Shown: piece after piece, positions 1,174 to 16,239 of the stretch
Layout of the letters: the number at the start of each line of letters is the position of its first letter
Numbering within the stretch: position 1 is the first letter of the stretch
Source of the DNA: Candidatus Scalindua sp.
Lineage (GTDB): Bacteria > Planctomycetota > Brocadiia > Brocadiales > Scalinduaceae
NCBI GenBank assembly: GCA_031316235.1
Contig: JALDRA010000001.1
Coordinates: 2,130,001-2,162,000, forward strand
Length of the DNA: 32,000 bases
Reading direction: 5' to 3'
Notes under the pieces: model-generated
The model's input: the letters and a program-made list of their open reading frames with translations, nothing else
Database searches by the model: none
Told to the model about the DNA's origin: nothing
Position numbers and translations under genes: made by a program

Positions 1174-1779
1174 TCATCTACAAGAGCAGATGGTTTTTTT
1201 TGACCCCAGCAAATTATCTTGTGTAATATCTGGAAAGTCATCTACATAAGAGAATCTAGTGAAACGGTGACTAGCTGGTTTAGGTATTATAATTGGAATT
1301 GATAATTGTTCTACATTTGTCACCTTGCACTTAACCCTGATCCATTTTTTCCTAAATCCATCCCGGACTTCTTCTAAGGCTGCATCATAATTTTCAAAAG
1401 AATTACATGCGACTAATAATTCATTAGCCCTTCTATCAAAAAGTTTCTTATCTTCAAAGTAATTGATTATTGACGAATATTCATCTTCAGTTATTAATTC
1501 GGCATCATGATGAATACCAATGATTATAGATTCCTTAGTTTCTGGATGTATTGAAAAAAATCCTATACTAAATTTTCCATTATTATCATTTAGCTTCTTA
1601 GTTTGTGGTGTTTTATATGTATAAGGGAATATATATCCATTATATTCATCGGATAACTGAAAATTCCACTCTTCGTGTCCAAATCCTTTCTCACCTGGAA
1701 AGCCCCCCTCATATGTTGAACCAGACGGTAATTTCCATCCCCTTGTATTCCAACATATCCTTTGCATTACTCTTAACAT
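1174..1779 (-). CDS. hypothetical protein, 201 aa, directly downstream of brxA on the same strand; N-terminal CWNxxGWxxPSG...GFGHEEW motif
   Basis: ORF track entry. It lies 70 nt after the brxA stop on the same strand. The N-terminus is RICWNTRGWKLPSGSTYEGGFPGEKGFGHEEWNFQ. No catalytic motif was recognised. Confidence 0.65.
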   Translation of the reverse strand: MLRVMQRICWNTRGWKLPSGSTYEGGFPGEKGFGHEEWNFQLSDEYNGYIFPYTYKTPQTKKLNDNNGKFSIGFFSIHPETKESIIIGIHHDAELITEDEYSSIINYFEDKKLFDRRANELLVACNSFENYDAALEEVRDGFRKKWIRVKCKVTNVEQLSIPIIIPKPASHRFTRFSYVDDFPDITQDNLLGSKKTICSCR

Positions 1780-1849: not shown

Positions 1850-2560
1850 TTAGTGTTTCATCAATAAATGATTACGGTTGACATCTCGTATATATTCCCA
1901 TTCATTGGAGTGATATTTCTTTGCAACCTCTTTCAAGTCTACCTCTTTGAAATAATATAAAAGGGATGAATCAATACTTGATAAATCTACCATTGCTGAC
2001 TTTAAAAATACTTTAGAATAGAGCATCAGGAAATTCTTTGCCTGTTCATTTAACATTGAAGGTTTATTCATTAGATGATACTTTTGTGTACCCGTCTGCT
2101 CAAGTATTTTAAAATGAACTAAGGTTCTTAAGAATGATCTGACAGACCGTTTTACAACATCTCGATCTCCATATTCATGAATCATCTTTTTGGACAGGAT
2201 TGCTGATGATAGCTGATTTGTATGATCAAAGCTTAACCTGATCTTTTTTGTAATAAATCTTGTAATTTCATAATCCATTAATATCTTTATAAGGAAGAGT
2301 GGGAGTATCTGTTCGAGTGAATATTTTTCTACCCACTCCATAATTATATTATTTTCAATAATATTTCTTTTTTCTTGAAACGAATATACAAAACTGCGAA
2401 AAATAACAGTTCGTGCTTTTCTCTTACCTTCCTTACCGACTAATTCTTTAGCAATATCCTCAAAAGGCAGATTATATTTAGATGGATTCTCGCCCGGCTC
2501 GATCATTTTAAGTGTTTCATAAATCCATTCCGGCTTTAATGGTCTGTCAAATCCTATCAA
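1850..2560 (-). CDS. brxA: BrxA-like small BREX protein (assigned by position and size)
   Basis: This 236-aa ORF is the last gene of the BREX block. Its TTG start (2560..2558) overlaps the pglZ TGA stop (TTGA). A small BrxA after PglZ is the expected type 3 BREX order. The sequence itself was not independently recognised. Confidence 0.55.
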   Translation of the reverse strand: MIGFDRPLKPEWIYETLKMIEPGENPSKYNLPFEDIAKELVGKEGKRKARTVIFRSFVYSFQEKRNIIENNIIMEWVEKYSLEQILPLFLIKILMDYEITRFITKKIRLSFDHTNQLSSAILSKKMIHEYGDRDVVKRSVRSFLRTLVHFKILEQTGTQKYHLMNKPSMLNEQAKNFLMLYSKVFLKSAMVDLSSIDSSLLYYFKEVDLKEVAKKYHSNEWEYIRDVNRNHLLMKH

Positions 2561-3987
2561 GATATAACCTCAACAAATGGTACAATTAATTCATCCAATG
2601 TGATTCCTCCATGAGTAATTTCAATCTTATTTTTATATGAAAATGACGTGCGGTCTTTCGCCAATAATACTACTTTATCTTTTACAAAGGGAATTTCATA
2701 GATATTCGTATCATAAAATTTAGACAATTCGCTCCTTACAATAATAGTAGCACGCTTACTCGACGTCTCAATTAAGTATTTATCAATAACCTGCCCGTTA
2801 CCTGTAGCAACTAAACATCCATGATCTGAACAAATCCATATTTTATAACCTTCCTCTTTTAACAACATCAATTCTTTTTTTATTGAGGATTTTTCCAAAT
2901 AATTATGCACGTTCATAAAATACATTCCTTTATTCTTTTCTGTTGGTGGGAGAAGAGTTTTATGTGCAATATAGTCAAATAGATTATAAATTATTTTTAC
3001 CGTATCAATCCCAAGCAGCTGTTCATCAGATTGCAACTGTCCTTCCCGGTAAAAGCCAACACTCCTTTCATTAAATATCTCTTTGAAGGCTTTATCTTCA
3101 TTTTGCGATGTGATTTCATAAACTTTATTAGCACTGCCGTAAAAAATGGCTGATCTGGATATCCTGGTCATGGTTGGAATAAGTGCAAAAATATATTTCT
3201 CCTCAAAAGAAAAATCATCTTCTGTTAAATACTCTTTCAGTAAATGCCATTCTGCAACACCCATACCATCAAAACAGACTAAAGCGATTTTTGAATCGTT
3301 CTTGTTCGTAATGTATTTAACAATCCGATCAACAGTTTTAAAGTTGATTGTAGATTCATAGAAAGAGTTTTTTAATATTCCGTTTAATATAGGCTCTCCT
3401 GTAGCTTTATCTACTTTTTCAACCAATGCATCATCCGGTTCTTTACCTGACCTATAACTACAGTAAATAAATCTTCCCCATTTATCTCCTAACGTTAAGA
3501 TATCATCATATGTTTTTACGTTCTGGCAATCTTTTATTATTTGTTCCTGACAATATTTTGCTACTTTTTTAAACCCATATCTTTCCGAATTAATCAGTAT
3601 CTGTCTGAAATTGTGCCTGGAGATAAGTTGTAAGGAGTTTTTGTCAAGTTGATAATCGATAAGTTGAACCAACTGCCGAACAGATATTTGGAGTAATATC
3701 TGTGGTTCAATATCTAAAGGAAGCTGATTCTCATTAAATTCAATGATATTTACTTTTGTTCGTAAATATGCGGGCAAAGAGAGACTTTTTGATATGATTA
3801 TTTGATTGTTACCTGTCAAGCCAGAAAGAACTTCTTCGACGGATTGTGTGATCATGTAATTTATTGCAGTATTATTCAGATACTTCGTGAACTCAGGGCA
3901 ATGTAAAAGTCCAATCTTGTCTATGATTACCTTGTTAGAATTATCATGTAATTTTAGCCTGTTTATTATAATGTCCTGCCAGTTCAA
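2557..3987 (-). CDS. pglZ: PglZ-domain protein (alkaline-phosphatase superfamily), BREX core component
   Basis: 476 aa. PglZ-like motifs: KIALVCFDGMGVAEW, FALIPTMTRISRSAIFYG, KIWICSDHGC and the C-terminal ITHGGITLDELIVPFVEV. The TTG start 3987..3985 follows the brxHII TGA stop directly. Confidence 0.85.
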   Translation of the reverse strand: MNWQDIIINRLKLHDNSNKVIIDKIGLLHCPEFTKYLNNTAINYMITQSVEEVLSGLTGNNQIIISKSLSLPAYLRTKVNIIEFNENQLPLDIEPQILLQISVRQLVQLIDYQLDKNSLQLISRHNFRQILINSERYGFKKVAKYCQEQIIKDCQNVKTYDDILTLGDKWGRFIYCSYRSGKEPDDALVEKVDKATGEPILNGILKNSFYESTINFKTVDRIVKYITNKNDSKIALVCFDGMGVAEWHLLKEYLTEDDFSFEEKYIFALIPTMTRISRSAIFYGSANKVYEITSQNEDKAFKEIFNERSVGFYREGQLQSDEQLLGIDTVKIIYNLFDYIAHKTLLPPTEKNKGMYFMNVHNYLEKSSIKKELMLLKEEGYKIWICSDHGCLVATGNGQVIDKYLIETSSKRATIIVRSELSKFYDTNIYEIPFVKDKVVLLAKDRTSFSYKNKIEITHGGITLDELIVPFVEVIS

Positions 3988-6843
3988 TCAAATAAACTCC
4001 ACGTAAGCCAATTGATACAATTCCATTTTTGGCACAATATTTCTTTGCAATTTTAATTTTTCTAGCTGTTCAGTCCTATCTTTTTCCAGAGATTTCAATT
4101 TTGCATCACGAATATTGTCTATTTGTATTTTTGAAAAAGCATTCTGTTTAAATCTGAGATAATCATCATATTTCTGTTCATATTGATTTATTTCATTAAG
4201 CCATGTAAGTTTCACGGCTGTAAATATTTCATTCGCCTTTTCTTCCGCATATTTGAGAGCAGTCTTAGAGATGTTTTGTATATCATGCTTGCACGCATAA
4301 TTCTGTACAATTTGAACATCATTAATTATATTCTTTTCTAAATAATTGCTGATGCGGCTGTTATTAAACTCCTCATCTTCCATAAAAACAGTAATAAGAG
4401 ATGTTTTATGTTTATCAATCTGATTACTGGTGAATAACTTATAAATGAACCAATATCCGTTAATATTCTGAAATTTATTAATCTTAAAATGCATTGCCGA
4501 GACCGTACCCAGTCGTGAATTTTTCTTAAGATCGGTATGTATATTTTTGACGAGTGGATGATCCATGTTTACAAATTCGATATTCCCTTTTTTTGTAGAT
4601 GCTGAATTATCAAAAGTTACATTTCTGTACGTGACAGGATCATTCTCGTCGTCATGAAACGGATTGGTGAAATAACAATATTCCCCTTCATCTTTGTACC
4701 ATTTAACTTCGATACCCTTAAATGACAAATAGTTTATAACCAGATGCTTTAAAATAGAATTCAGATTACTATTAACAAGGCGTTGCGGATCTTCAGTCAA
4801 CTGGGAAAATGGTAATAACAGTTCGTCCTTATCTAAAATGTCTTTAGCCCGTTTATAAATCTGAGCTGCAATTTGATCGAGTTGCTCATTCTCAATATCT
4901 TTTATACGAATAGCGTCAAAATAGATTCGGTCAAATGAAAACTCTTCCTGCAAAAGTGTTATGACATCCGCATACTTATCATCACCGAACTGTATCTTTA
5001 TCTTTTTCAGTTTAACCTCCAGAATCTTTCTAACCCGATCCTCGATGGTATCTGTTAAATGAAAATTAAAAATCAGAGCATTATGCGTTTGCCCAATTCT
5101 GTCAATACGCCCTATTCGCTGTTCCAGGCGGGAAGGGTTCCAAGGCAAAGCATAATTTATAATAAAATAACAGAATTGCAGGTTAATACCTTCACCTCCT
5201 GCATCAGTAGAAACAAGTATTTGATTGGTCGTTCTGAATAATTCAACCTGTTTTACTTTTTCTTCTCTGGATAATAAACCGTTAATAAAGGAACAGGAAT
5301 AGCCGAATTTGCTTAGGAACTGGATAAGTGCATCCTGAGTTGCTCTGAATTCAGTAAAAATCAGACATTTTAAATTCGATTCTTTCTCTCGATTCTTGAC
5401 CTCTTCTATTATCTTTATGAGCTGGCGAAATTTTATATCTCTGTATGATACCGATAGCTTTTCTGCTAAACCGATACATGAGGCAACAAAGTTCTTCTCG
5501 ATTTCGATATCTTCTCTATTTGTAAAGGTTGACTTCTTTAAAAGTTCATCAACTTCAAGTTCCTCTTCATCTGAGTTGATATTTTTTTTATATTCGATCT
5601 TTTGTGTTTCATCTTCCAGAAATGTCTTTCGTTTCTTCATAGCATCCAATAATGCAAAACTGCTGGAAGATACTATTCGCTGGTAGAGCATTACCAGAAG
5701 TATCAATATCTGATTATTATTTCGTTTGGCAAGATTATAATATTTGGCGGTATATTCAGTAACAAATTCGTACAACTCAATCTCTTCTTTGTTATCAGTT
5801 CTGGTTCGATTTATTTCTATTAGTGAGGTAATACGGTGCTTGAAGATCCTGTTACCGTCAAAATCAACCACAGCTCTCTTTTTGTTCCGTACAGCGACTT
5901 CCTGAACCAGAGCGGGTGTTAATGACTTAATACTCGTGAATAATATAGGATCAATTAATCGTAGAAGATTTAAGAACAAATGCTCATCACCCTGATGTGG
6001 TGTGGCGGTGAGCAGCAACAGTACAGGAATCGATTCACTCAACTTCTCACCTAATTTAAAACGGGCAGATTCGTGCCCGTCACCATGCTTGCTTAGCTTA
6101 TGGGCTTCGTCTATGATTACAATATCAAATCCGGCGTCAGTAATATCCTCAAAGATATGTTTATTATGCCATTTCCTCCGATTCGTATCCTCTTTGTCCA
6201 GACTTTCATCAATTTTCAATGGTTTAATCGAATCTATAGAAGCAATGATTCTATCATGAAGTTTCCAGACATTGACATCTTCACCATAACTCTGTTTTAA
6301 GACACGGACATAATCCTTTGTGTAAATAACAAATTTCTCATTAAACTTGTCGACTAGCTCTTCATGCCATTGTAGAACAAGGCCGGATGGCACAACGATC
6401 AGGATTTTCTTAGCAATACCTCGAAGTTTGAATTCCTGATACACAAGGATAGCTTCAATTGTTTTTCCCAGACCCACTTCATCAGCAATAAGGCTGCGGG
6501 GTTGAAAGCGATTCATTACAAAATTTACCGTGAGCAATTGATGTGGGAGAGGCTGGATTCTATAATTGGTGGATGTAATCACCGCATTTTCAGAAATATT
6601 GGCCTGTAAACGCAGCAACATATGCCTGGCAAAGAAAAGAGAAGGGATATCAATGCTGGCTTTCTGCATTAAAGCGATAGAATCTTCTTCGATCTCTAAA
6701 TCGTCAGTCTTTATGGAAACAGTATTGCCGTCTTTAAATAAGATTTCTGTATAATTTTCACCAAAAAGCTCACTAAACCCGATAATAGTACCAATACCTC
6801 TGTTTTCATATAAACGGCTTTTTATTTTATCTCCGATTTTCAA
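3988..6843 (-). CDS. brxHII: SNF2/DEAH-family helicase, BrxHII-type
   Basis: 951 aa. Motif I is IADEVGLGKTIEA, II is DIVIIDEAHKL and III is LLLLTATPHQG. Motifs V and VI are STDAGGEGINLQ and LPWNPSRLEQRIGRIDRIGQ. The called start is TTG 6843..6841, 7 nt after the pglXI stop. Confidence 0.85.
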   Translation of the reverse strand: MKIGDKIKSRLYENRGIGTIIGFSELFGENYTEILFKDGNTVSIKTDDLEIEEDSIALMQKASIDIPSLFFARHMLLRLQANISENAVITSTNYRIQPLPHQLLTVNFVMNRFQPRSLIADEVGLGKTIEAILVYQEFKLRGIAKKILIVVPSGLVLQWHEELVDKFNEKFVIYTKDYVRVLKQSYGEDVNVWKLHDRIIASIDSIKPLKIDESLDKEDTNRRKWHNKHIFEDITDAGFDIVIIDEAHKLSKHGDGHESARFKLGEKLSESIPVLLLLTATPHQGDEHLFLNLLRLIDPILFTSIKSLTPALVQEVAVRNKKRAVVDFDGNRIFKHRITSLIEINRTRTDNKEEIELYEFVTEYTAKYYNLAKRNNNQILILLVMLYQRIVSSSSFALLDAMKKRKTFLEDETQKIEYKKNINSDEEELEVDELLKKSTFTNREDIEIEKNFVASCIGLAEKLSVSYRDIKFRQLIKIIEEVKNREKESNLKCLIFTEFRATQDALIQFLSKFGYSCSFINGLLSREEKVKQVELFRTTNQILVSTDAGGEGINLQFCYFIINYALPWNPSRLEQRIGRIDRIGQTHNALIFNFHLTDTIEDRVRKILEVKLKKIKIQFGDDKYADVITLLQEEFSFDRIYFDAIRIKDIENEQLDQIAAQIYKRAKDILDKDELLLPFSQLTEDPQRLVNSNLNSILKHLVINYLSFKGIEVKWYKDEGEYCYFTNPFHDDENDPVTYRNVTFDNSASTKKGNIEFVNMDHPLVKNIHTDLKKNSRLGTVSAMHFKINKFQNINGYWFIYKLFTSNQIDKHKTSLITVFMEDEEFNNSRISNYLEKNIINDVQIVQNYACKHDIQNISKTALKYAEEKANEIFTAVKLTWLNEINQYEQKYDDYLRFKQNAFSKIQIDNIRDAKLKSLEKDRTEQLEKLKLQRNIVPKMELYQLAYVEFI

Positions 6844-6850
6844 GATTTAT

Positions 6851-7251
6851 TTAAAATCCTTCCACTTTTAATTCCGCCACTTCAATAAACTCACTCAGTT
6901 CTGAATCGTTCTCTATGATCTTGTTGTCAAGGCGCCTGGCCAATGTCAAAATATCCTGAAACCGTTCCTTCTTATAACAATATTCAAAACCGAATATGAC
7001 AGCCTGCTTACGGAACTCCTTGATCTTCTTTTTAGAACCTTTGGCTTCCAACAGCAAAGCCTCGAATTCTTTCAGTAATTCTCTCTCACGCTTTTGCATA
7101 ACAGTTAATTTTTCATCTTCGGTTTGCGGACGACGGTATTTATCACCCTGCAGTATGAAATTATTATCTAGCAATTCACGTAAATCAGGAGTTTGATCAC
7201 CACTAATATTGGCCACTTTGGTAAAATCGGGATGAATAGTTTTAAAATCTC
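6851..7251 (-). pseudogene. pglXI: 3' fragment of pglXI (C-terminal 133 codons), cut off from the rest by the IS630 insertion; the ORF track shows it as 6851..7216 with a GTG start
   Basis: The reading frame stays open from the IS junction (..RDFKTIHPDFTK-VANISGDQTPDL..). It joins in frame to the 5' fragment once the IS and one TA copy are removed. Confidence 0.85.
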
Positions 7252-7267
7252 TAGTGTCACGTCAAGC

Positions 7268-7296
7268 TTGAATTGTCGTATATAATAGATTATAAT
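7268..7296 (+). promoter_or_regulatory. candidate sigma70-type promoter for the IS transposase
   Basis: TTGAAT (7268..7273), a 17-nt spacer, then TATAAT (7291..7296), about 40 nt upstream of ATG 7334. GGGAG at 7320..7324 is a possible RBS. This is a motif match only. Confidence 0.35.
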
Positions 7297-7333
7297 ATCT
7301 TCATAATTAAATTTTTTTCGGGAGATTTAGATT

Positions 7334-8466
7334 ATGAAGAAATACATAGTAACTCTTGATTGCGATGAACGTAACAGGCTTGTTGCTTTAACGTCTAAAG
7401 GGATGCATAGATCCCAAAAGATACTCAATGCATTACTATTATTAGCTTGCGACCAGGGTGAGTATCAGGGCAAACGTTCGACCAACGTTGAAATTGCCCG
7501 TGTTCTTAAAATAAGCATGAAGAAAATTGACCGGGTAAAGAAAAGATTTGTTGAAGAAGGTTTTGAAGTTGCGCTTAATGGACGCAAAGGCAATCGAGTA
7601 TATGAAAAGAAGACAGATGGTGACTTTGAAGCCCACCTGGTAGCGTTAAGTTGTAGCGAGCCGCCAGAAGGTTTTGCAAGATGGTCTCTGCGATTATTAG
7701 CAGACAAGGTAGTAGAACTTGAATATACTGACAAAATTTCCCACGAAACAATACGCCGTATATTAAAAAAAACGAAATTAAGCCCTGGCAACGAAAAGGT
7801 TGGGTAATACCGCCAAAAGAAAACGGCAGTTTTGTCGCTAACATGGAAATGGTGCTGGATGTATACAAACGTCCATATGACGCTAAGTATCCAGTAATAT
7901 GTATGGACGAGTCACCAAAGCAACTTATATCAGAGACAAAGATGCCAATTTCTGCTTCACCAGGGCAACCGGCTAAGTATGACTATGAATATAAGCGTTG
8001 TGGAGTGTGTAATATTTTTCTGGCCTTTGAACCATTGGCCGGGAAACGTATAGTAAAAATAACAGAAAGAAGAACTAAACAAGATTGGTCCTATTTTCTG
8101 GAAGACGTTGTTAATACATATGGTCATGCGAACAAAATAACATTAGTAATGGACAACTTGAATACTCATGATGCTGGATCGTTGTATGAAACGTTTGTGC
8201 CGGATAAAGCAAAGGAAATTTTAGATAAATTTGAGTTTGTCTACACCCCAAAGCATGGTAGCTGGTTAAATATGGCAGAAATCGAGTTGAATGTACTTGC
8301 TGGACAGTGTTTAAACAGGCGGATTGATAATATTACAAAGATAAAAAAAGAAGTACAGTCATGGCAGAAATTTAGAAACAATAAGAAATCAAAGGCTAAC
8401 TGGCAGTTTACTACGATTGATGCCAGGATAAGATTATCTAAACTTTACCCGACACTTGATGATTGA
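7334..8466 (+). CDS. IS630-family DDE transposase encoded in two frames (ORFs 7334..7807 and 7843..8466), joinable by a -1 shift on the A8 run at 7765..7772
   Basis: The N-terminal ORF is helix-turn-helix-like. The second frame is open from 7771 and reads NEIKPWQRKGWVIPPKENGSFVANMEMVLDVY, so the join gives ..RRILKK-NEIKPWQRKGW.., the conserved IS630 linker. DDE candidates are VICMDESP, LVMDNLNTH and WLNMAEIE. The joined product is about 377 aa. Confidence 0.85.
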
Positions 8467-10587
8467 CGTGACACTAGGTTCATCTATGTAAGAATTAAGC
8501 CAGATAAGCGCTGATTTTTCATCGGATACAAACATGTTCATTTGGCCTCTCCGTATGTCACCAATGCCTTCCAATTTCATTTTCTTTTTATATTCGCGGT
8601 AAGTTTCTATCTGATCTGGATTGAACCAATAGTCATCTTCATCTGCGAAGTTCTTTCGAAGCATTTTGTAAAATGTTGAAGCATCATATTTAACAGTATA
8701 ACTGCGTTGAACATAAAAGGAGAGCATCTTAGAATAAAGCATCTGCTCTGTACGTTCAATAGATGGCTCTGGAGAAATGTGCGATAGATGCATTTTGATA
8801 AATTCATCTTCCAATCCTTCTCCTGTCATATCCAGAAAAATTTGCTCAAATTTTTGCCTTGGTTTATAGGCCGTAATAATTAGATCACTATCTACACTAC
8901 CTGGAGCAGTCATTTGTTTAAATGTTTTTTGCTTCTTATCGAGAAGTGAAACGGAAGCGATTATGAAACCGGCTTTAGAAATAGAGTTTTGTAAAATGTT
9001 CCATATTTCAGATTTCGAATTGTGAAATTCGATAGTAATCCAACGATTTGGTTTTAGTATTCTATAAAATTCGCAAAAAGACTGTTCTATAACCTTACGG
9101 TAATGTATTTCATCTTTTAACTGTACTTTGTTAACAATTGCTTCATTACTATTATTTGTTAAAACTTTTAACCAAGATTCCCAAATGTAATTAAGTTCAG
9201 AATACATTATATTTCCACCAAAAGGTGGATCGACGAAAATATAATCAACCGAATTCTCAATTATCGGCAAATTTGTTGAGGAACCCGTATTTATAATCGT
9301 AGTATTTTTTGCATAGCCTAAGTATTTCGATATTTTTTTTATTTTGTTTGTTAAACTATATCTATAATTTACTTCTGAAATTTTCTTTCCAACATATAAG
9401 GTTCCTTTTAAATACCTATTGACTTGAGAGTAAGATGCCTCAAAATATCTATTCATTTTTGTCTGACCAAGCATCACGGATTGTAACCAAAACAATAATA
9501 AGGGTTGAATTTCTTTATCTGATTTTTTAATTTTATAGAATAAACAAGAAGTAACATATAGATTTCTTTTTGTATAAAAAGAATCAATAGTTTTTAATCC
9601 ATGTGACTTTCTTGGTTGAGCTGTATTGCTCCCATCAGGCAAGATATTCGTGGGAAACCAATATGGTATTTCAAGGTTATTACATTTTGAAATTATTTCC
9701 AAATCATATTGCTCTGGTTTTTTAGTATATACTGCTCCTTGAAAAGTATAATTAAGTAGTACTGGAACTAAAACAGCATATCCATTATCATTGTATTTCC
9801 TTTTCAAGGTCGTATTCGTGATATCCGCTTTGCATTCTTGGCAAAATATTATGTCCTTATTTCTTTTAAGTTTTTCATCTACACCAATATGCCAAAATAT
9901 GTTTTCTTCTTTGCAATAAGGACATAAATATACATCACTCCATACTGTGTAATTAATCCTACCAAATTCTGTATTATTAATTGTTTTATTCTTTGAGTTT
10001 GAATGAATTGTTTTGAACATCCATTCGCATTCAGAGTCTAATTCATTTAGAATTGCGTTAGATCTTTGTTCGAAGAGAGTAATATTGTGTTTTTTATTGT
10101 AATTCCATGAAATAAAAGTTGCTATTGGTGAAATATCTGAAAGTATACAAAACCTTTTACCCATATTTTTTAAATTACCGATTGCGCTTTGCACATATTC
10201 ATTATTTTCACATAATGCTGCCGCGACACCTGTCATTCCAGTTCCACAAAAACCATCAAAAACAATATCACCCGGTTTAGTATAATGTAAGATTTTTCTT
10301 AATATTACTTTAGGTGGTACTTTTGTGTGGTACGTATGAAGGTTGTATATTACATCTCCTTTTCCTTCAACTATATCATCAATAAAAGGTGTTATATTAA
10401 AATCATCCTCGTATTCATTATATTTTTTACCATATTCCTTAATAAAATCATTAATATATGGATTAGGGCAGGCTGTGTAATATGGCGGGTCAGATAATTC
10501 TAAAATATCTTCATCTTTACCAATGGGAAAACCTTCAATATCTCGTACGGAATCGAGCAGTTCTTTAAGCGGTTTAAAATTTTTCAT
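8434..10587 (-). CDS. pglXI: PglXI-type Zn-ribbon N6-adenine DNA methyltransferase, 5' fragment (704 native codons plus 13 IS-derived codons and a stop)
   Basis: SAM-binding motif I is DIVFDGFCGTGMTGVAA. The Zn ribbon is CPYCKEEN...FCQECK. Catalytic motif IV is IFVDPPFGGN. Native sequence ends at ..YIDEP (codon 8478..8476); the last 13 residues, SVTSIIKCRVKFR, are read from the IS right end. Confidence 0.8.
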   Translation of the reverse strand: MKNFKPLKELLDSVRDIEGFPIGKDEDILELSDPPYYTACPNPYINDFIKEYGKKYNEYEDDFNITPFIDDIVEGKGDVIYNLHTYHTKVPPKVILRKILHYTKPGDIVFDGFCGTGMTGVAAALCENNEYVQSAIGNLKNMGKRFCILSDISPIATFISWNYNKKHNITLFEQRSNAILNELDSECEWMFKTIHSNSKNKTINNTEFGRINYTVWSDVYLCPYCKEENIFWHIGVDEKLKRNKDIIFCQECKADITNTTLKRKYNDNGYAVLVPVLLNYTFQGAVYTKKPEQYDLEIISKCNNLEIPYWFPTNILPDGSNTAQPRKSHGLKTIDSFYTKRNLYVTSCLFYKIKKSDKEIQPLLLFWLQSVMLGQTKMNRYFEASYSQVNRYLKGTLYVGKKISEVNYRYSLTNKIKKISKYLGYAKNTTIINTGSSTNLPIIENSVDYIFVDPPFGGNIMYSELNYIWESWLKVLTNNSNEAIVNKVQLKDEIHYRKVIEQSFCEFYRILKPNRWITIEFHNSKSEIWNILQNSISKAGFIIASVSLLDKKQKTFKQMTAPGSVDSDLIITAYKPRQKFEQIFLDMTGEGLEDEFIKMHLSHISPEPSIERTEQMLYSKMLSFYVQRSYTVKYDASTFYKMLRKNFADEDDYWFNPDQIETYREYKKKMKLEGIGDIRRGQMNMFVSDEKSALIWLNSYIDEPSVTSIIKCRVKFR

Positions 10588-10605
10588 ATGTCCTCTTCAT
10601 TGTTA

Positions 10606-13600
10606 CTATTTCAATTTAATACGAATACTACCTTCTTCCTTGTTCTTCTTCAGATCTTCAATGAGTGTAAGAAAGCTTTTACGCAGTTCATCTATGGTCG
10701 TCATTTGCTGGTCAGGAAAGAGTGTCTTAATAATCTTTTCGCTGTCAACCTCAACAATATCAATTTCCTTGAACAGCTTATTAATGGTTTGCACCATCTG
10801 CTGTGTTATTTGCTCAGGCAGGTTTTGTTCCTTCAAAATTGCCTCAATCAGCTGCTTATCTGATTTTTTATCCAGAAACTGCACGTTATCCCGATATTCC
10901 CGCATCTCTTTCAGCGTAGTCTTTTCATAGGATTCGTAGAGCTCTTCGATCAAATCTTCTATCCGGCTCAGCGTTGCTGGAATAGTACTGTAATTTACGT
11001 GACCGGGAAACAGACATTGCTGGCAGCGCACGGCCTTTTGTAAACTGTCTTCCAGATTATGATTTATGCATTGGTATTGTTTTAACTCATTCCATGAAAC
11101 AACCATCTGGTGGAACTTAACGTTATTTATGCAGGTCAAATGACTTAAGATTGAAAGCTTCTTAAATGTCTCACTATTTTGATATGTATTTAAGATATTC
11201 CAATCTACTTTTTTCCCAACATATTTTGCATGAGCCGATAAATACAAATCAAAGATGTAGATCTTCTTAAATTGCTGTATCTTGCCCTTAATAGGATTTC
11301 GTTGTGATCGATCACTAAGGGTTGGATAATCACTGCAAATCAATTCTATTTCATCCCTGAAATCTTTCAACGTTTTAAATTTCTGTTCATCAGTAACAAG
11401 CAACGAATGTTCCGTAAGAAGGTTTATGGCATCATTCATATAGCTGAAAGAGTCATGGATTAAGTCAAGGTATTCGCATAAAGCACCAGATAGATTCCGA
11501 ATCTTATCCAGAACGATGACAAAACCTGGCAATTTATCATTGAAAGATTCAATCTTTCCAAATTGCGTGGGATTATCAATATCGAGCGCCTTCCATTCAA
11601 TTTCTGTTATGGTATCAAAATTGTCCTGAATCTGTTTTATATCGACATAGATCTTCTGCTTCTGTCTTAACAGATCAATAGCATTCCCTAAATTCTGAAT
11701 ATCCTGTTGAATAGCATTGACTTTTTCCTTGTATTCTCTAAATGCCGTGAACCTCTCTTTTTCAATCGTTATTTTACTGCCGTTTAAACCGAGCGCGTTA
11801 AGTAATCGAGCAGCAAAATCATAGGTGTAATCTTCCTGTAAACGCGCATAGGCAATAGTCTCAAAAACAGCGAGTGATTTTATCTTCTCTCTAACGTTAT
11901 TAATGTCAACCTTATCTCCACCTTTTAATTGCAGGTATATTTTCCCGAGAACAGTCATCACAACCAGAACAAAGTAAACAACTTCAGCCTCCAGGCCATA
12001 ATCAGAATCTCCAAGTGGCGTTACTATTTCTTTTTCAATGTCAGTTACCTGTTGTTTCTTCTTTTTCAGAATATCCAATATACGCAAAGCTATCTTTGAG
12101 TGAGAGAGGTCAGGATAGCCTTGTGAATCCAGGAGATCTATACTGCTTAAAAATTGTGAAGTGTTCCTACCCAGATTATTAAAATCACCTCTGGTTAGGT
12201 CAGTGACAATGGAACTTAATGAAGTCCCAATATTTCTGGAAGTGAGTTGTATTGAATATACTGGATGAGAAGGATAACTTCCATTAAAAGGTTCATTAAA
12301 GAGTGAAGTTTTCAACTCCTCAATAACCTCAGAAACACTGCCACGTTCTCGACTCAGTATCTTCTTTATAAACTTCTGCTCACCATTTAGAGCACATTCC
12401 GCAAAATGAATGAGTAACATTGACAGCCTGTATTTAAAACCCGTTACGGTAGTACCTGCACGTTCATAACCGTTTATCCTTTCATCCAGTTTTCGGGACA
12501 TAATATGCTTCTGGAAATTGTTGTTAAGTAAACCCTTGATTGCTACGATCTCTTTCAGCAGCTCAACATTCTCAACAACTTCTAAATGCAACTTTATGGT
12601 CAATTGATTTTTGGCAAAGGTTTTGTCAATCTTTTCCACTAATGGTGAAATGAAGACGATAGAATAATCTCTTTCTGGAAGTGTGTTAAACTTACACCCT
12701 TTCCTGGCAAAGATAATATAACCATATCTGCATGATTTCACTGTCTGCCACACACATTCATCATCAAAGACATCAGCTTGACCTGAAATAGGATCCAGTT
12801 CCAGGATTTCCTTTAACTGATTAAATAGTTCTTCTTCCATTTCATCTTCAGAGACGGGTCCGGCTTTATCACTGATTTTTTGTTCAGGATCAATTCCGGC
12901 TTTTGTATCAAATCGAAAATATTCTAACCCTGAACTTTGATCCTTGAATGTCTTGACATATTCACCATCAGTCACCTCACGAATCTTTTTAATGATTAAG
13001 GCAATATTGTCCGCAACATTAAACAGCTTTTTTTGTGGTAAAAGCATTAAGTTATTTGCTAGTTCCCGCGCAGTTGACCCTTTTTCTCTTTTATTCCACA
13101 ATGAATAGATTGCCAAACCTTTGACAACTTTAAGAGCATCCAACTGGTATTTACTTTCCAATAGATTGATCTTCTGGGTAATGATATCCATTGCCTTAGA
13201 GATTTCGTATATCTCCTCAAGATTCTTCTTGTTGGGATTGTTTTCGAGTAAATTATATATATTGTCAAAAGTCAGAAAATACGGGAATTTTTCATTTTGA
13301 ATGTACTTAATCTCAGACGTGGCAAACTGAATAACTCCGCGTTTCTCGAAATAAGGGAGATCACTGAAAAGCTCAATCAGAAATGGGGTTAAGGGAAAGA
13401 GGTTTATATAATCATCTATATTTCTGCTGACATCTTCAATCTTTTCAGCAAATGGTTTAAATCTATTTTCTAAAGTATGTTTTTGTTCAGATGTTTTAGG
13501 AACGATACGTTCAGAAATTACTTTTTTAATATCTTCCTTATGGATGATAATGTTCTGGAAACGCTCTTGAATTCTTCCTATTTCACCGGCTATATCTTTA

Positions 13601-14805
13601 AATTTAGGACTTGTGAATACATCTTCCTGCATTGAGCCTACAAACATCATGTCTTGATCCTGGCATACCTGACCAATAACCCGTAAGAATTGCAGGTCGG
13701 CTTTCATATCCGCCTTTTGCTTAGTATCTAAAAAGTCAGAAATTTCATCAATGACTACCAGCAGTCCGGAAGTAGGCCCACTTTTCTTTATACTATCTAT
13801 AATCTTTGCAATATTCTCCTTGTCATCAAAATCCTTCTCAGGATCGAACTGTGGTATTGTAATATTATATTTGGATTTTAACTGCTTCCTGATTTTTCCA
13901 TAAAACCATTGTTTAAGCGAGGCACGCCCGGCGCCCAATTCAAATTGTACGGTCAGGAATTTTCTATCTAATTCTTTTAATTTATTTTTGATGTTTTCAT
14001 TGGATATTAAATCTGATAATTCAGGCTCTTCTATAAGACATACTAGAAAACCTACTAAGTGAGATTTACCGCTTCCATAATTACCGATAACAGTTCTTGC
14101 TTTATGTGTAGGTTTTTCAATATCTTCGAAGAACTCTATTATCTGCTGTTCGAGAGATTCTGAAATGATGTAACTGCTTACGATATCTTGCCTGCGATTC
14201 TTTTCTTTTAAATCAGAATCAATATCTACAACATCTTTTATTTGCTTAAAATTGAAAAGATGTCCAATAGCCTCCTCATCCCATTCAGATGGTTCTGCTA
14301 TTATGGATTGTTTCGGCTTATGGGTTTCATATTCATCTGAGATTTCGTTAATGTCTGCGACAACAATATCATTAATTTCTCGATCATAATAATCAGATTT
14401 TCCAACTTCGCCATAATACAGACGAGATCCCAGCTTCTGTTCGTCCTCCATAAAGATGATACAGTTTTTGTTACGTGAGTTATACTTAAATGCGCCTACC
14501 GGAGAAATCTTTGTAAACAGATCATGATAGAGGATACTGGGATTAGTTAAGATCAGTTTGTTCGGCTTGGTATTAAACCACTCCTTGATTTTTGGACCGA
14601 TCTCAATATCAAAGTCAACCTCTTCCGCCCCCAACTCTTTCCGCAGATTTAGCAGCTCACTTTCGACATCAATGAGCACCCAGCCGTCTTTCTTCAAAGT
14701 CTTAATTAGCATCTTTTTCTTTGCTTTGTTTTCACCAATTATGGCTAGTAATTTAAAGCGTAAAGCATCGGCTTGAGTTAAAAGAGTATTAATCCCGATT
14801 GTCAT
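10606..14805 (-). CDS. brxC: BrxC/PglY-type large P-loop ATPase with an extra N-terminal module of about 170 aa
   Basis: 1399 aa. Walker A is VIGNYGSGKSHL at residues 239-250 and Walker B is GLLVVIDEISDF. It is the first gene of the block. GGAGG lies 4 nt upstream of ATG 14805. Confidence 0.8.
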   Translation of the reverse strand: MTIGINTLLTQADALRFKLLAIIGENKAKKKMLIKTLKKDGWVLIDVESELLNLRKELGAEEVDFDIEIGPKIKEWFNTKPNKLILTNPSILYHDLFTKISPVGAFKYNSRNKNCIIFMEDEQKLGSRLYYGEVGKSDYYDREINDIVVADINEISDEYETHKPKQSIIAEPSEWDEEAIGHLFNFKQIKDVVDIDSDLKEKNRRQDIVSSYIISESLEQQIIEFFEDIEKPTHKARTVIGNYGSGKSHLVGFLVCLIEEPELSDLISNENIKNKLKELDRKFLTVQFELGAGRASLKQWFYGKIRKQLKSKYNITIPQFDPEKDFDDKENIAKIIDSIKKSGPTSGLLVVIDEISDFLDTKQKADMKADLQFLRVIGQVCQDQDMMFVGSMQEDVFTSPKFKDIAGEIGRIQERFQNIIIHKEDIKKVISERIVPKTSEQKHTLENRFKPFAEKIEDVSRNIDDYINLFPLTPFLIELFSDLPYFEKRGVIQFATSEIKYIQNEKFPYFLTFDNIYNLLENNPNKKNLEEIYEISKAMDIITQKINLLESKYQLDALKVVKGLAIYSLWNKREKGSTARELANNLMLLPQKKLFNVADNIALIIKKIREVTDGEYVKTFKDQSSGLEYFRFDTKAGIDPEQKISDKAGPVSEDEMEEELFNQLKEILELDPISGQADVFDDECVWQTVKSCRYGYIIFARKGCKFNTLPERDYSIVFISPLVEKIDKTFAKNQLTIKLHLEVVENVELLKEIVAIKGLLNNNFQKHIMSRKLDERINGYERAGTTVTGFKYRLSMLLIHFAECALNGEQKFIKKILSRERGSVSEVIEELKTSLFNEPFNGSYPSHPVYSIQLTSRNIGTSLSSIVTDLTRGDFNNLGRNTSQFLSSIDLLDSQGYPDLSHSKIALRILDILKKKKQQVTDIEKEIVTPLGDSDYGLEAEVVYFVLVVMTVLGKIYLQLKGGDKVDINNVREKIKSLAVFETIAYARLQEDYTYDFAARLLNALGLNGSKITIEKERFTAFREYKEKVNAIQQDIQNLGNAIDLLRQKQKIYVDIKQIQDNFDTITEIEWKALDIDNPTQFGKIESFNDKLPGFVIVLDKIRNLSGALCEYLDLIHDSFSYMNDAINLLTEHSLLVTDEQKFKTLKDFRDEIELICSDYPTLSDRSQRNPIKGKIQQFKKIYIFDLYLSAHAKYVGKKVDWNILNTYQNSETFKKLSILSHLTCINNVKFHQMVVSWNELKQYQCINHNLEDSLQKAVRCQQCLFPGHVNYSTIPATLSRIEDLIEELYESYEKTTLKEMREYRDNVQFLDKKSDKQLIEAILKEQNLPEQITQQMVQTINKLFKEIDIVEVDSEKIIKTLFPDQQMTTIDELRKSFLTLIEDLKKNKEEGSIRIKLK

Positions 14806-15128
14806 TTTGCCTCCGTTAAGAGAATATAAATAGATTCCAGCTTAATATTGTTACTATAAACAATGTTATTTCAGAACTAAGTTACAACTTTTATGAAGAA
14901 TTACAATAAGATGCAAAAGCTGATTGGAGTTATTTTTATATACTAGAATACGGTTTGACAACATCTACTCCTGAAAGCTTTGGTGATAAGAATTTCTAGA
15001 ATAATTGTTATAAAATGGTGAAGCCTGCTTATAGCTAACAGTTAAATCAGACTTTTCAAGCAAAGAGTATTTACGGACTTTAAGATTATCAAGTCGCATA
15101 ATCAGGCGGATATTAAACCAGCTTAATT

Positions 15129-15152
15129 GGCTACACACTGTGTAGCCTTTTT
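15129..15152 (+). terminator. intrinsic-terminator-like hairpin on the plus strand, with no annotated plus-strand gene upstream
   Basis: ggctacac-act-gtgtagcc gives an 8-bp stem and 3-nt loop, followed by TTTTT (15148..15152). On the minus strand no T run follows the hairpin. Confidence 0.35.
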
Positions 15153-15375
15153 GATCATCCTTAAAAATTTAGAAATAAAACCCGGGAAGTTTGTTCCATA
15201 TAATCTGGTCCACTGCTACAGTAGGTGTCTTTATGCAATATGTCGTCGATATTCTTAAAAGTTTGTTCAAACACGTGAAAGTCCTTTTCTATTCAATAAT
15301 TTTAACCACTGTTTTTCTTGGGTGGTTGGAGGTTGATTGATAACAAAAGACTTGGCACGACCACCAAGCGATTTG

Positions 15376-16239
15376 TTAGCTGTTTTTAATTGGTGCTTTA
15401 TCCAAATTATGCTGGGGGACATAACTCCAAAAGTTAATTGGACAATTTGGATTAAAAGTACTTAAAGATTGATTTGTGTCAATACTTACCCTCAGTTTCA
15501 TGCTTTTACATTTTTTAATTAATAAGTCTAAAGTTTTAAACCTTTCATTTTTTGCACTTGAAAAGGTAGTTTCATTAATTTGCTCAAAGAAAGTCATTTG
15601 AGGGCCGTTAATCATACTCCATGTTTTATATTCTTGATAATATTTTTTTGAAAAAACAGCTAATCCTGCAAATAAATCAGCTACTTGGCAACATGGTACT
15701 TCGTTCGAACAAATCTGTTCGAACTTATCAATTTTAAAAAGTTCTTCAGAAAAGGTATCTCCAAAGAGGGGATTCTCAAAAAAAGTACGTCTCTTTCCAG
15801 CATTGATTAAACAGTTTAGTATAGTTTCCCAATCAATTTCATGCTTTTCATCGGGATATATTTCCCATTTAGCCTCTATTTCTCTCTTTGACATCAAATT
15901 TTTAAGAAGGTGAAAAAACATTCTTGCAAAGTTTGCTTTGTCATCTCTGCCAATAACGCTATGTCGTCTGTCATAGGTATCCCAAATTATTGTATCGATT
16001 CTAATTTGTTTCTGATCTACATTATCCAATATGAAATTGATGAATTTTTCAGCACAAAACATGTATTTCGCAGATCTTACCTTTTGCCATTTAAACTCAG
16101 AAACTCCTGATTCTTTCAAAATATCAAAGAGATATTTATTAATAAATTCATTATTATTTTGAGGAAAAGAAATTGCGGCAATACTTCTATGTCTTTCTGC
16201 CGAAATATAACTTTCATCAGAGCATACAATATATTTCAT
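15376..16239 (-). CDS. DUF3800-like hypothetical protein
   Basis: 287 aa. N-terminal MKYIVCSDESYIS (a DES motif after a beta-strand) and C-terminal CCQVADLFAGLAVF (QxAD) match the DUF3800 pattern as I recall it. It is on the same strand as the BREX block, 570 nt upstream of brxC. Confidence 0.55.
   Translation of the reverse strand: MKYIVCSDESYISAERHRSIAAISFPQNNNEFINKYLFDILKESGVSEFKWQKVRSAKYMFCAEKFINFILDNVDQKQIRIDTIIWDTYDRRHSVIGRDDKANFARMFFHLLKNLMSKREIEAKWEIYPDEKHEIDWETILNCLINAGKRRTFFENPLFGDTFSEELFKIDKFEQICSNEVPCCQVADLFAGLAVFSKKYYQEYKTWSMINGPQMTFFEQINETTFSSAKNERFKTLDLLIKKCKSMKLRVSIDTNQSLSTFNPNCPINFWSYVPQHNLDKAPIKNS

Follow-up and report, generated by a model that had tools for sequence, protein, structure and literature searches.

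A 32,000-nucleotide stretch of the Candidatus Scalindua sp. genome (assembly GCA_031316235.1, contig JALDRA010000001.1, positions 2,130,001 to 2,162,000; hereafter the window, in whose coordinates all features are given) carries a type 3 bacteriophage exclusion (BREX) operon whose first gene, here called brxFC, encodes BrxF and BrxC as one protein. The operon reads brxFC, pglXI, SNF2 helicase, pglZ and brxA, all on the minus strand (1850..14805). The type 3 BREX gene set (BrxF, BrxC, PglXI, BrxHII, PglZ, BrxA) is represented throughout, with BrxF and BrxC sharing a single polypeptide. The brxFC gene spans 10606..14805 (minus strand), a 1399-aa open reading frame (ORF) that starts with an ATG at 14805, 4 nt downstream of a GGAGG Shine–Dalgarno sequence (14810..14814), and its homologues begin at the same position. 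Its product divides into a BrxF-like module (residues 1–156, 14338..14805), a linker of ~23 aa (residues 157–179, 14269..14337) and BrxC/PglY proper (DUF6079, residues 180–1399, 10606..14268), all encoded on the minus strand. A first-pass annotation of this DNA had described a long BrxC of 1399 aa with its Walker A motif unusually far in, at residues 241–248, and both the ORF and the motif (GNYGSGKS) are as described. It had also marked off residues 1 to about 165 (14311..14805) as a separate unit; the unit is real, but the BrxF module proper ends earlier, at residue 156.

The N-terminal module gives a full-length match, above the curated cutoff, to the family model for BrxF. NCBIfam NF033453 (BREX-3 system P-loop-containing protein BrxF) aligns residues 5–151 to profile positions 4–148 of 149 and scores 55.4 bits on a 175-aa N-terminal fragment and 53.2 bits on the whole protein, where 50 bits are required. 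The PADLOC BrxF model (PDLC02498) aligns residues 13–154 to positions 12–151 of 158 (E = 1.2e-19). These hidden Markov model (HMM) scores are far above chance. Pfam, which has no BrxF model, returned noise alone for residues 1–175 at E values up to 10 (PAN_1, UvrA_inter).

The domain boundaries follow from comparison with a split locus (L046), in which brxF and brxC are separate genes. By blastp, residues 3–156 of the fused protein align to residues 2–153 of the stand-alone L046 BrxF (162 aa; 34% identity, E = 9e-25), and residues 180–1396 align to residues 4–1201 of the L046 BrxC (1206 aa). The linker falls into the gap between these two matches and has no counterpart in either split protein, and the position of the former BrxC start methionine is now occupied by E177. 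Pfam DUF6079 (PF19557) covers residues 180–1399 (profile 3–1238, E = 2.7e-186), and PADLOC BrxC matches the fused protein with E = 7e-198. The usual BrxC N-terminus, earlier placed from about residue 175 onward, thus enters at residue 180, equivalent to residue 4 of an unfused BrxC and to DUF6079 profile position 3. BrxC is complete in this protein: DUF6079 is full length, Walker A (GNYGSGKS, residues 241–248, 14062..14085) and Walker B (VVIDE, residues 350–354) are intact, and G241, G244, G246, K247, S248, D353 and E354 are invariant in the alignment.

Three size classes came out of an exhaustive profile search that covered 1.84 billion representative proteins: fused proteins of 1398–1407 aa, stand-alone BrxFs of 151–162 aa covering profile positions 3–156, and unfused BrxCs of 1210–1218 aa, whose residues 4–74 match profile positions 180–245. 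From the alignment to the split locus and the HMM matches, the fused protein is a full-length BrxF of a P-loop-degenerate sub-lineage, followed by a variable linker and a complete BrxC, and the first-pass reading of the extra N-terminal module as a fused BrxF holds. BrxF is therefore present within the brxC ORF, and not as the usual separate gene of ~150–170 aa, while its position relative to BrxC is kept. The NCBI pipeline names fragments of such fused proteins either 'BREX-3 system P-loop-containing protein BrxF' or 'DUF6079 family protein'.

The fused gene is preceded by a 570-nt intergenic leader (14806..15375, minus strand) that holds no brxF gene. No ORF of at least 60 aa occurs in this leader, as had been stated, the longest being 57 aa, and none of its ORFs of at least 50 aa matches the BrxF HMM. 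An HMM built from stand-alone BrxFs likewise found no second brxF in the window, in agreement with the claim that a stand-alone gene is missing.

The module lacks an intact Walker A motif (GxxxxGK[ST]), and its Walker B and sensor-1 motifs are also lost. At the P-loop position stands GENKAKKK (residues 24–31, 14713..14736, minus strand), between β1 and α1, which is the degenerate GxxxxKKK seen in the first pass and aligns column for column with the GE[ST]GSGKT of P-loop-intact BrxFs. Across 35 fused homologues this stretch reads G-x-[ND]-x-x-K-[KR]-x. The first glycine and a basic residue at the Walker lysine position are kept, the second glycine has become lysine, and any of several residues (K/N/E/Q/D/S/A) occupies the Mg-binding Ser/Thr position. 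The string CIIFMEDE had been taken as Walker-B-like. It lies at residues 115–122 (14440..14463, minus strand), but this is the sensor-1 strand β4 with its acidic patch; the true Walker B position is β3, KLILTN (residues 83–88, 14542..14559, minus strand), because of the order of elements in the structural model and the alignment of KLILTN with the VVLDN or LLIDN of P-loop-intact BrxFs. Here the aspartate has been replaced by threonine, and N88 is invariant. The β4 strand aligns with VVASWNG of intact BrxFs, the sensor-1 asparagine being replaced by an acidic residue, and forms a motif, FLE[DE]E, specific to the fused clade, in which F118, E120 and E122 are invariant among 25 fused proteins. 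Both the 'YYR' of the type 1 protein BrxB and the 'PEYR' of intact BrxFs end in a 'YR' arginine, whose place is taken by Tyr140 in the window and by Tyr or Phe across the fused clade. A single column, R111 of the 'SR' motif (14473..14475, minus strand, just before β4), does not vary among the BrxFs examined, be they fused, stand-alone and degenerate, or P-loop-intact. R111 was considered as a BrxB-type arginine finger and ruled out: it precedes β4, whereas the 'YYR' of BrxB precedes β5.

An intact P-loop is not universal in the BrxF family. The majority form stands alone and has ~171 aa (1661 clusters at E ≤ 0.001), and the best 120 of the 1661 clusters all measure 155–196 aa. Those that were aligned carry a GE[ST]GSGKT Walker A, an hhhhDN Walker B, a sensor-1 asparagine (..ASWNG) and 'PEYR', and P-loop-intact BrxFs score ~200 bits on NF033453. 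A second stand-alone group (151–162 aa, 50–96 bits) is without these motifs, with sequences such as VDNNQQYD and IGSEEAKRK at the P-loop, so that stand-alone members above the same NF033453 cutoff also lack it. The degenerate P-loop is not peculiar to the fusion and did not result from it: the sister stand-alone BrxFs share the decay. A rough neighbour-joining tree recovers the fused proteins as a monophyletic clade whose sister group is the degenerate stand-alone BrxFs, which argues that P-loop decay is older than the fusion, or at least independent of it. Rakesh & Krishnan (PMC12839542) noted that some BrxF representatives have intact Walker motifs and others do not, and both BrxF and BrxB have been published as inactive STAND/ORC-like modules (PMC10164562; PMC12839542).

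AlphaFold2, run on residues 1–175 with a 40-sequence alignment, predicts a confident AAA+/ORC-like α/β fold (predicted local distance difference test score (pLDDT) 90.9, predicted TM-score 0.83). The model is composed of β1 (19–23), α1 (27–39), β2 (43–46), two helices (47–58 and 65–78), β3 (83–87), two further helices (89–93 and 102–112), β4 (114–119), three short strands within 123–143 and β5 (148–151). It has the features of the BrxF fold, an ORC/STAND-like AAA+ core with a helix-extension-helix insert, a cap sheet and no C-terminal lid. The model follows the topology published for the inactive STAND modules BrxB and BrxF, in which the helix-extension-helix comes after strand 2, strand 4 leads into a three-stranded cap and the helical lid is missing (PMC12839542). 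The modelled α1 begins at residue 27 and extends into the expected phosphate loop. A Foldseek search of the PDB with the module gave the ORC5 chain 7jps_E as its best match (E = 3.4e-3, probability 0.97), alongside other ORC subunits (ORC4/5), other AAA+ proteins and BrxB, all of them weak (E of at least 3e-3). The highest TM-scores among 50 Foldseek matches, 0.43/0.39, belong to 9zll chain E, the BrxB of Acinetobacter. Searching PDB sequences with a profile of the BrxF alignment yielded nothing significant and missed 9zll_E. By sequence the module is not a member of the BrxB family (DUF1788), which it resembles weakly and at fold level only; by analogy it would work like BrxB from outside that family. 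A second model, of residues 1–520 (pLDDT 82.5), leaves the linker at low confidence, with low pLDDT at 162–166, and finds its closest Foldseek match in the N-terminal domain of Acinetobacter BrxC (9zll, 9zdx; E ~1e-9).

These observations bear on whether the module might still bind or hydrolyse nucleotide through a non-canonical P-loop (GxxxxKK), which would make the fused protein a tandem two-ATPase enzyme. The retention of G24, K29 and K/R30 in all fused proteins, the conserved acidic FLE[DE]E after β4 and the existence of a P-loop-intact BrxF lineage, which is the majority of the family, fit such an activity. However, the Mg-binding Ser/Thr is gone and its position varies, the glycine before the lysine is replaced, the Walker B aspartate and the sensor-1 asparagine are lost, and α1 runs into the position of the phosphate loop in the model. 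Like decay in stand-alone BrxF and in BrxB has been read as inactivity in the literature (PMC10164562; PMC12839542), and we regard a second active ATPase site in this protein as improbable.

A homologue scan of one genome per GTDB species found 38 loci. Going by the names of their records, they lie mostly in Bacteroidota, with others in Deltaproteobacteria/Desulfo- lineages, Spirochaetales, Calditrichia, Deferribacteres and Chlorobiota. At least 24 of the 38 encode an uninterrupted ORF of 1399–1435 aa with a BrxF-like start and a canonical Walker A 234–244 residues downstream; of the remainder, some are cut off by the end of the contig and six are disrupted. The recurrence of the same uninterrupted ORF in independent genomes excludes a one-off event, a frameshift or an assembly artefact. 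Neither the window nor any fused locus has another BrxF within 8 kb, as judged with the HMM from stand-alone BrxFs. With a clade that is monophyletic in the rough tree, present in several phyla and free of a separate brxF, the sequences indicate that the fusion is inherited.

Among 25 full-length fused proteins the mean pairwise identity is 0.61 in the BrxF module, 0.65 in the AAA+ domain, 0.49 in the rest of BrxC and 0.27 in the linker, which ranges from 21 to 26 aa. The module and linker together (residues 1–179) contain 36 invariant residues. This pattern of identities points to purifying selection on the BrxF module as strong as that on the AAA+ core, and not to decay. One further protein joins BrxF to BrxC sequence: P0056 (locus L043, 6352..8166, GCA_041685265.1), of 604 aa, carries a P-loop-intact BrxF (GESGSGKT) joined to the first part of BrxC and is followed by a 151-aa PglZ fragment. 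It was not counted as a second, P-loop-intact fused lineage, being the sole example and lying in a decayed locus.

The BREX copy in the window is damaged downstream of brxFC. The methyltransferase gene pglXI is knocked out by a clean insertion: its N-terminal part (8477..10587, minus strand; PADLOC PglXI, E = 3e-244, profile 39–752 of 919; ~703 native codons) and its C-terminal part (6851..7253, minus strand; PADLOC PglXI profile 828–917 of 919) are separated by an IS630-family insertion sequence of 1221 bp (7254..8474, plus strand). The element carries HTH_32/HTH_29 and DDE_3 ORFs in different frames, 28-nt inverted repeats with outer arms at 7251–7278 and 8450–8477, and a TA target duplication at 7252–7253 and 8475–8476. 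Excision in silico of 7254..8476, the element and one TA, restores an 837-aa PglXI ORF, where intact homologues have 814–883 aa. With pglXI split, the operon does not have the intact genes of a functional type 3 BREX, and the interruption by the IS630-family element indicates that this copy is probably inactive.

An eroded module in a damaged locus might be the decaying remnant of an accidental read-through fusion, functionless and on its way to loss. Its catalytic motifs are eroded, the window locus is itself hit by an insertion sequence, 6 of the 38 related loci are broken, and P0056, the fused protein of the P-loop-intact lineage, sits in a clearly decayed locus. Against this stand the conservation of the module at the level of the AAA+ core (0.61 versus 0.65) and above the rest of BrxC (0.49), and the retention of the fusion in several phyla with no replacement brxF nearby. 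The type 1 counterpart, BrxB, moreover belongs to the core complex with BrxC and PglZ. We consider such a functionless remnant very improbable.

How the fusion arose is suggested by the split loci, in which brxF and brxC overlap by 14 nt (L046) or 8 nt (L044) in the degenerate lineage and by 4 nt in a P-loop-intact locus (L041). A small indel in such an overlap, after decay of the BrxF P-loop, probably merged the two frames, and the short, variable linker is consistent with this origin.

A possible role for the tethered module comes from type 1 BREX. There, as a 2026 crystal structure showed, BrxB docks on the AAA+ domain of BrxC in place of another BrxC subunit, which it thereby precludes; ATP is shared between BrxB and BrxC, with R182 of BrxB (motif YYR) as the arginine finger; and BrxB also binds residues 1–98 of PglZ (PMC13326643). 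An engineered BrxC(1–551)–BrxB fusion behaves well and still binds PglZ (PMC13326643). The proposed type 3 counterpart of BrxB is BrxF (PMC10164562; PMC12839542). By analogy, the fused BrxF module would serve the BrxC ATPase as a tethered, non-catalytic, ORC2/3-like AAA+ adaptor. Seated on the neighbouring-subunit face of a BrxC AAA+ domain, it would cap or limit BrxC self-association and recruit PglZ, and tethering would fix the BrxF:BrxC stoichiometry at 1:1. Taken as a whole, the interpretation we favour, and consider likely, is that brxF and brxC of this type 3 BREX operon have fused naturally and that the module works as an adaptor in the manner of type 1.

Several observations weigh against this interpretation. 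Docking on the AAA+ domain and PglZ binding are both carried over from type 1. The Foldseek similarity between the module and BrxB is weak (E = 0.075, TM ~0.4), and hhalign of the BrxF profile against the AAA+ domain of unfused BrxC gives one non-significant match (E = 0.064), which sets the degenerate P-loop opposite the BrxC Walker A and serves as no more than a consistency check. The ATP site shared in type 1 includes R182 of BrxB, but the residue aligned with it in the fused clade is Tyr. Given Tyr140 and the clade-specific F118, E120 and E122, the interface between module and BrxC is likely not identical to that of type 1 and may differ from 9zll. The engineered fusion places BrxB C-terminal to BrxC(1–551), whereas BrxF is N-terminal here. 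The retained G24, K29 and K/R30 may also leave some residual phosphate or nucleic-acid contact.

The same type 1 data could be read in another way, with the module as a sensor or switch and not a passive adaptor: acting in cis as an auto-inhibitory cap, it would hold BrxC in the monomeric state until a phage cue removes it. In type 1, bound BrxB keeps out another BrxC subunit, a sensor role has been proposed for iSTAND modules (PMC12839542), the linker of 21–26 aa is flexible, and the clade combines conserved surface motifs of its own (FLEDE, DYY) with loss of the YR arginine. Such a switch is a matter of inference only, however, and iSTAND sensors are described as fast-evolving, whereas the strong conservation of the module speaks against an arms-race sensor. 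We judge the switch unlikely and retain the adaptor as the preferred role.

A further proposal, which we put forward tentatively and think doubtful, is that the fused clade constitutes a distinct BREX-3 sub-type. Its inactive AAA+ partner, of the BrxB/BrxF type, would be permanently tethered to BrxC and would have shed all contributions to the ATP site (P-loop, Walker B, sensor-1 and the trans 'YR' arginine) while gaining the acidic FLEDE surface, and BrxC assembly would be controlled in cis by an intramolecular cap in place of a diffusible, ATP-sharing partner. If true, the sub-type would be a natural 'Rosetta stone' for a universal BrxB/F–BrxC contact in BREX.

Three further genes complete the operon. 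The SNF2-type helicase (3988..6843, minus strand) is of the BrxHII class (Pfam SNF2-rel_dom and Helicase_C; PADLOC BrxHI/BrxHII, E = 7e-188), pglZ (2557..3987, minus strand) encodes a short form of 476 aa (NCBIfam BREX_PglZ_3, profile 231–641 of 642), and brxA (1850..2560, minus strand) is full length (PADLOC BrxA, E = 2.5e-46). PglZ measures 480–503 aa in fused loci and 488–490 aa in the split locus L046/L047, and its N-terminal region in this sub-lineage (loci L014–L032, L046, L047) is ~130 aa shorter than in the model family. The lengths in L046/L047 rule out that the short PglZ of the window is a truncation or a change correlated with fusion. The gene order of the window, with the helicase between pglXI and pglZ, recurs in L005, L007 and L013. 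Fused loci of the Bacteroidota type (L014, L015, L019, L020, L023, L024, L026, L027, L030, L031, L032) instead read, in the fetched flanks, brxFC-pglXI-pglZ-brxA without an intervening SNF2 helicase. Directly downstream of brxA, a 201-aa ORF (1174..1779, minus strand) has no Pfam, NCBIfam or PADLOC match and no homologue in the fetched flanks of related loci.

Upstream of brxFC, the leader contains a 37-codon ORF (15161..15274, minus strand; MFEQTFKNIDDILHKDTYCSSGPDYMEQTSRVLFLNF) that looks like the N-terminus of restriction-modification methyltransferases; Pfam gave no confirmation, and the ORF may be a gene relic. The next gene (15376..16239, minus strand) encodes a DUF3800-like protein of 287 aa that matches a PADLOC candidate defence model (PDC-M04A, E = 3e-11). 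It has its own terminator-like hairpin (15350..15369) and does not stand beside other fused loci. Farther upstream, a gene for a 454-aa Tachylectin-domain protein (18220..19584, minus strand) lies in a patch of 56% G+C, against 31–42% in the 3 kb on either side, which suggests a foreign origin. At 21006..21834 (minus strand), overlapping genes encode a HepT-like RNase of 137 aa and a nucleotidyltransferase of the Pol-beta type with 141 aa; together they form a HEPN/MNT toxin–antitoxin pair, consistent with a defence island. An Rfam scan of the window gave zero matches.

The architecture had been called undescribed. In the papers found on BrxF and BREX no text describes a BrxF–BrxC fusion, although a prior description is not fully excluded and the fused protein is itself common in public genomes. 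A supplementary alignment labelled 'BrxF iSTAND+ATPase; Representative_2' (PMC12839542) may denote the fused form. What appears new here is BrxC as the fusion partner, which those papers do not explicitly report; the parts and the type of fusion were already known. The fusion is accordingly an architectural variant of known parts and not a new mechanism. Because the type 3 counterpart of BrxB is naturally fused to BrxC, its conservation supplies independent evolutionary evidence that the contact between BrxC and its partner is general across BREX types. The fused protein is also a single-chain target for the biochemistry and structure of type 3 BREX. We know of no solved structures for type 3 BREX. 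In annotation, system finders that need a separate brxF gene may call fused loci incomplete.

Among the closest known systems is the degenerate stand-alone BrxF (for example P0029, 162 aa, locus L046). It shares with the window module the family model, a comparable score (50–96 versus 55 bits), length, predicted topology and eroded Walker A and B motifs, and its operon likewise holds BrxC, PglXI, an SNF2 helicase and a PglZ of ~488 aa. It differs in being a separate gene that overlaps brxC by 8–14 nt, in having 31–34% identity to the window module and in lacking the clade-specific conservation of FLEDE and SPVGAFKYNSRNK. P-loop-intact BrxFs (~171 aa; Marinobacter, Akkermansia, Desulfovibrio, Acidithiobacillus and others) belong to the same family, lie directly upstream of brxC and share the invariant 'SR' arginine and the conserved asparagine after β3, but they keep GE[ST]GSGKT, hhhhDN, the sensor-1 asparagine and the 'PEYR' arginine, and are essentially always separate genes (the best 120 of 1661 clusters, 155–196 aa).

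Outside type 3, BrxB (DUF1788) of type 1 is known from the BrxC(1–551):BrxB:PglZ(1–98) complex (PDB 9zll; Kaiser et al., NAR 2026, PMC13326643). BrxB and the fused module are both inactive, ORC/STAND-like AAA+ modules with a cap β-sheet, and BrxB is the proposed functional counterpart of BrxF. It has no detectable sequence similarity to the module, is a separate protein and offers R182 to the BrxC-bound ATP where the fused clade has Tyr. iSTAND modules are also fused to the C-terminus of PglW in type 2 and to the N-terminus of PglZ in type 4 (Rakesh & Krishnan, NAR 2026, PMC12839542). These, too, join an inactive module covalently to a core BREX protein, but their partner is an effector and not the BrxC ATPase. 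The engineered BrxC(1–551)–BrxB protein (PDB 9zn5, used for cryo-electron microscopy) is artificial, reversed in order and of type 1; like the natural fusion, it carries the BrxC AAA+ domain and an inactive partner on one chain, in an arrangement compatible with PglZ binding.

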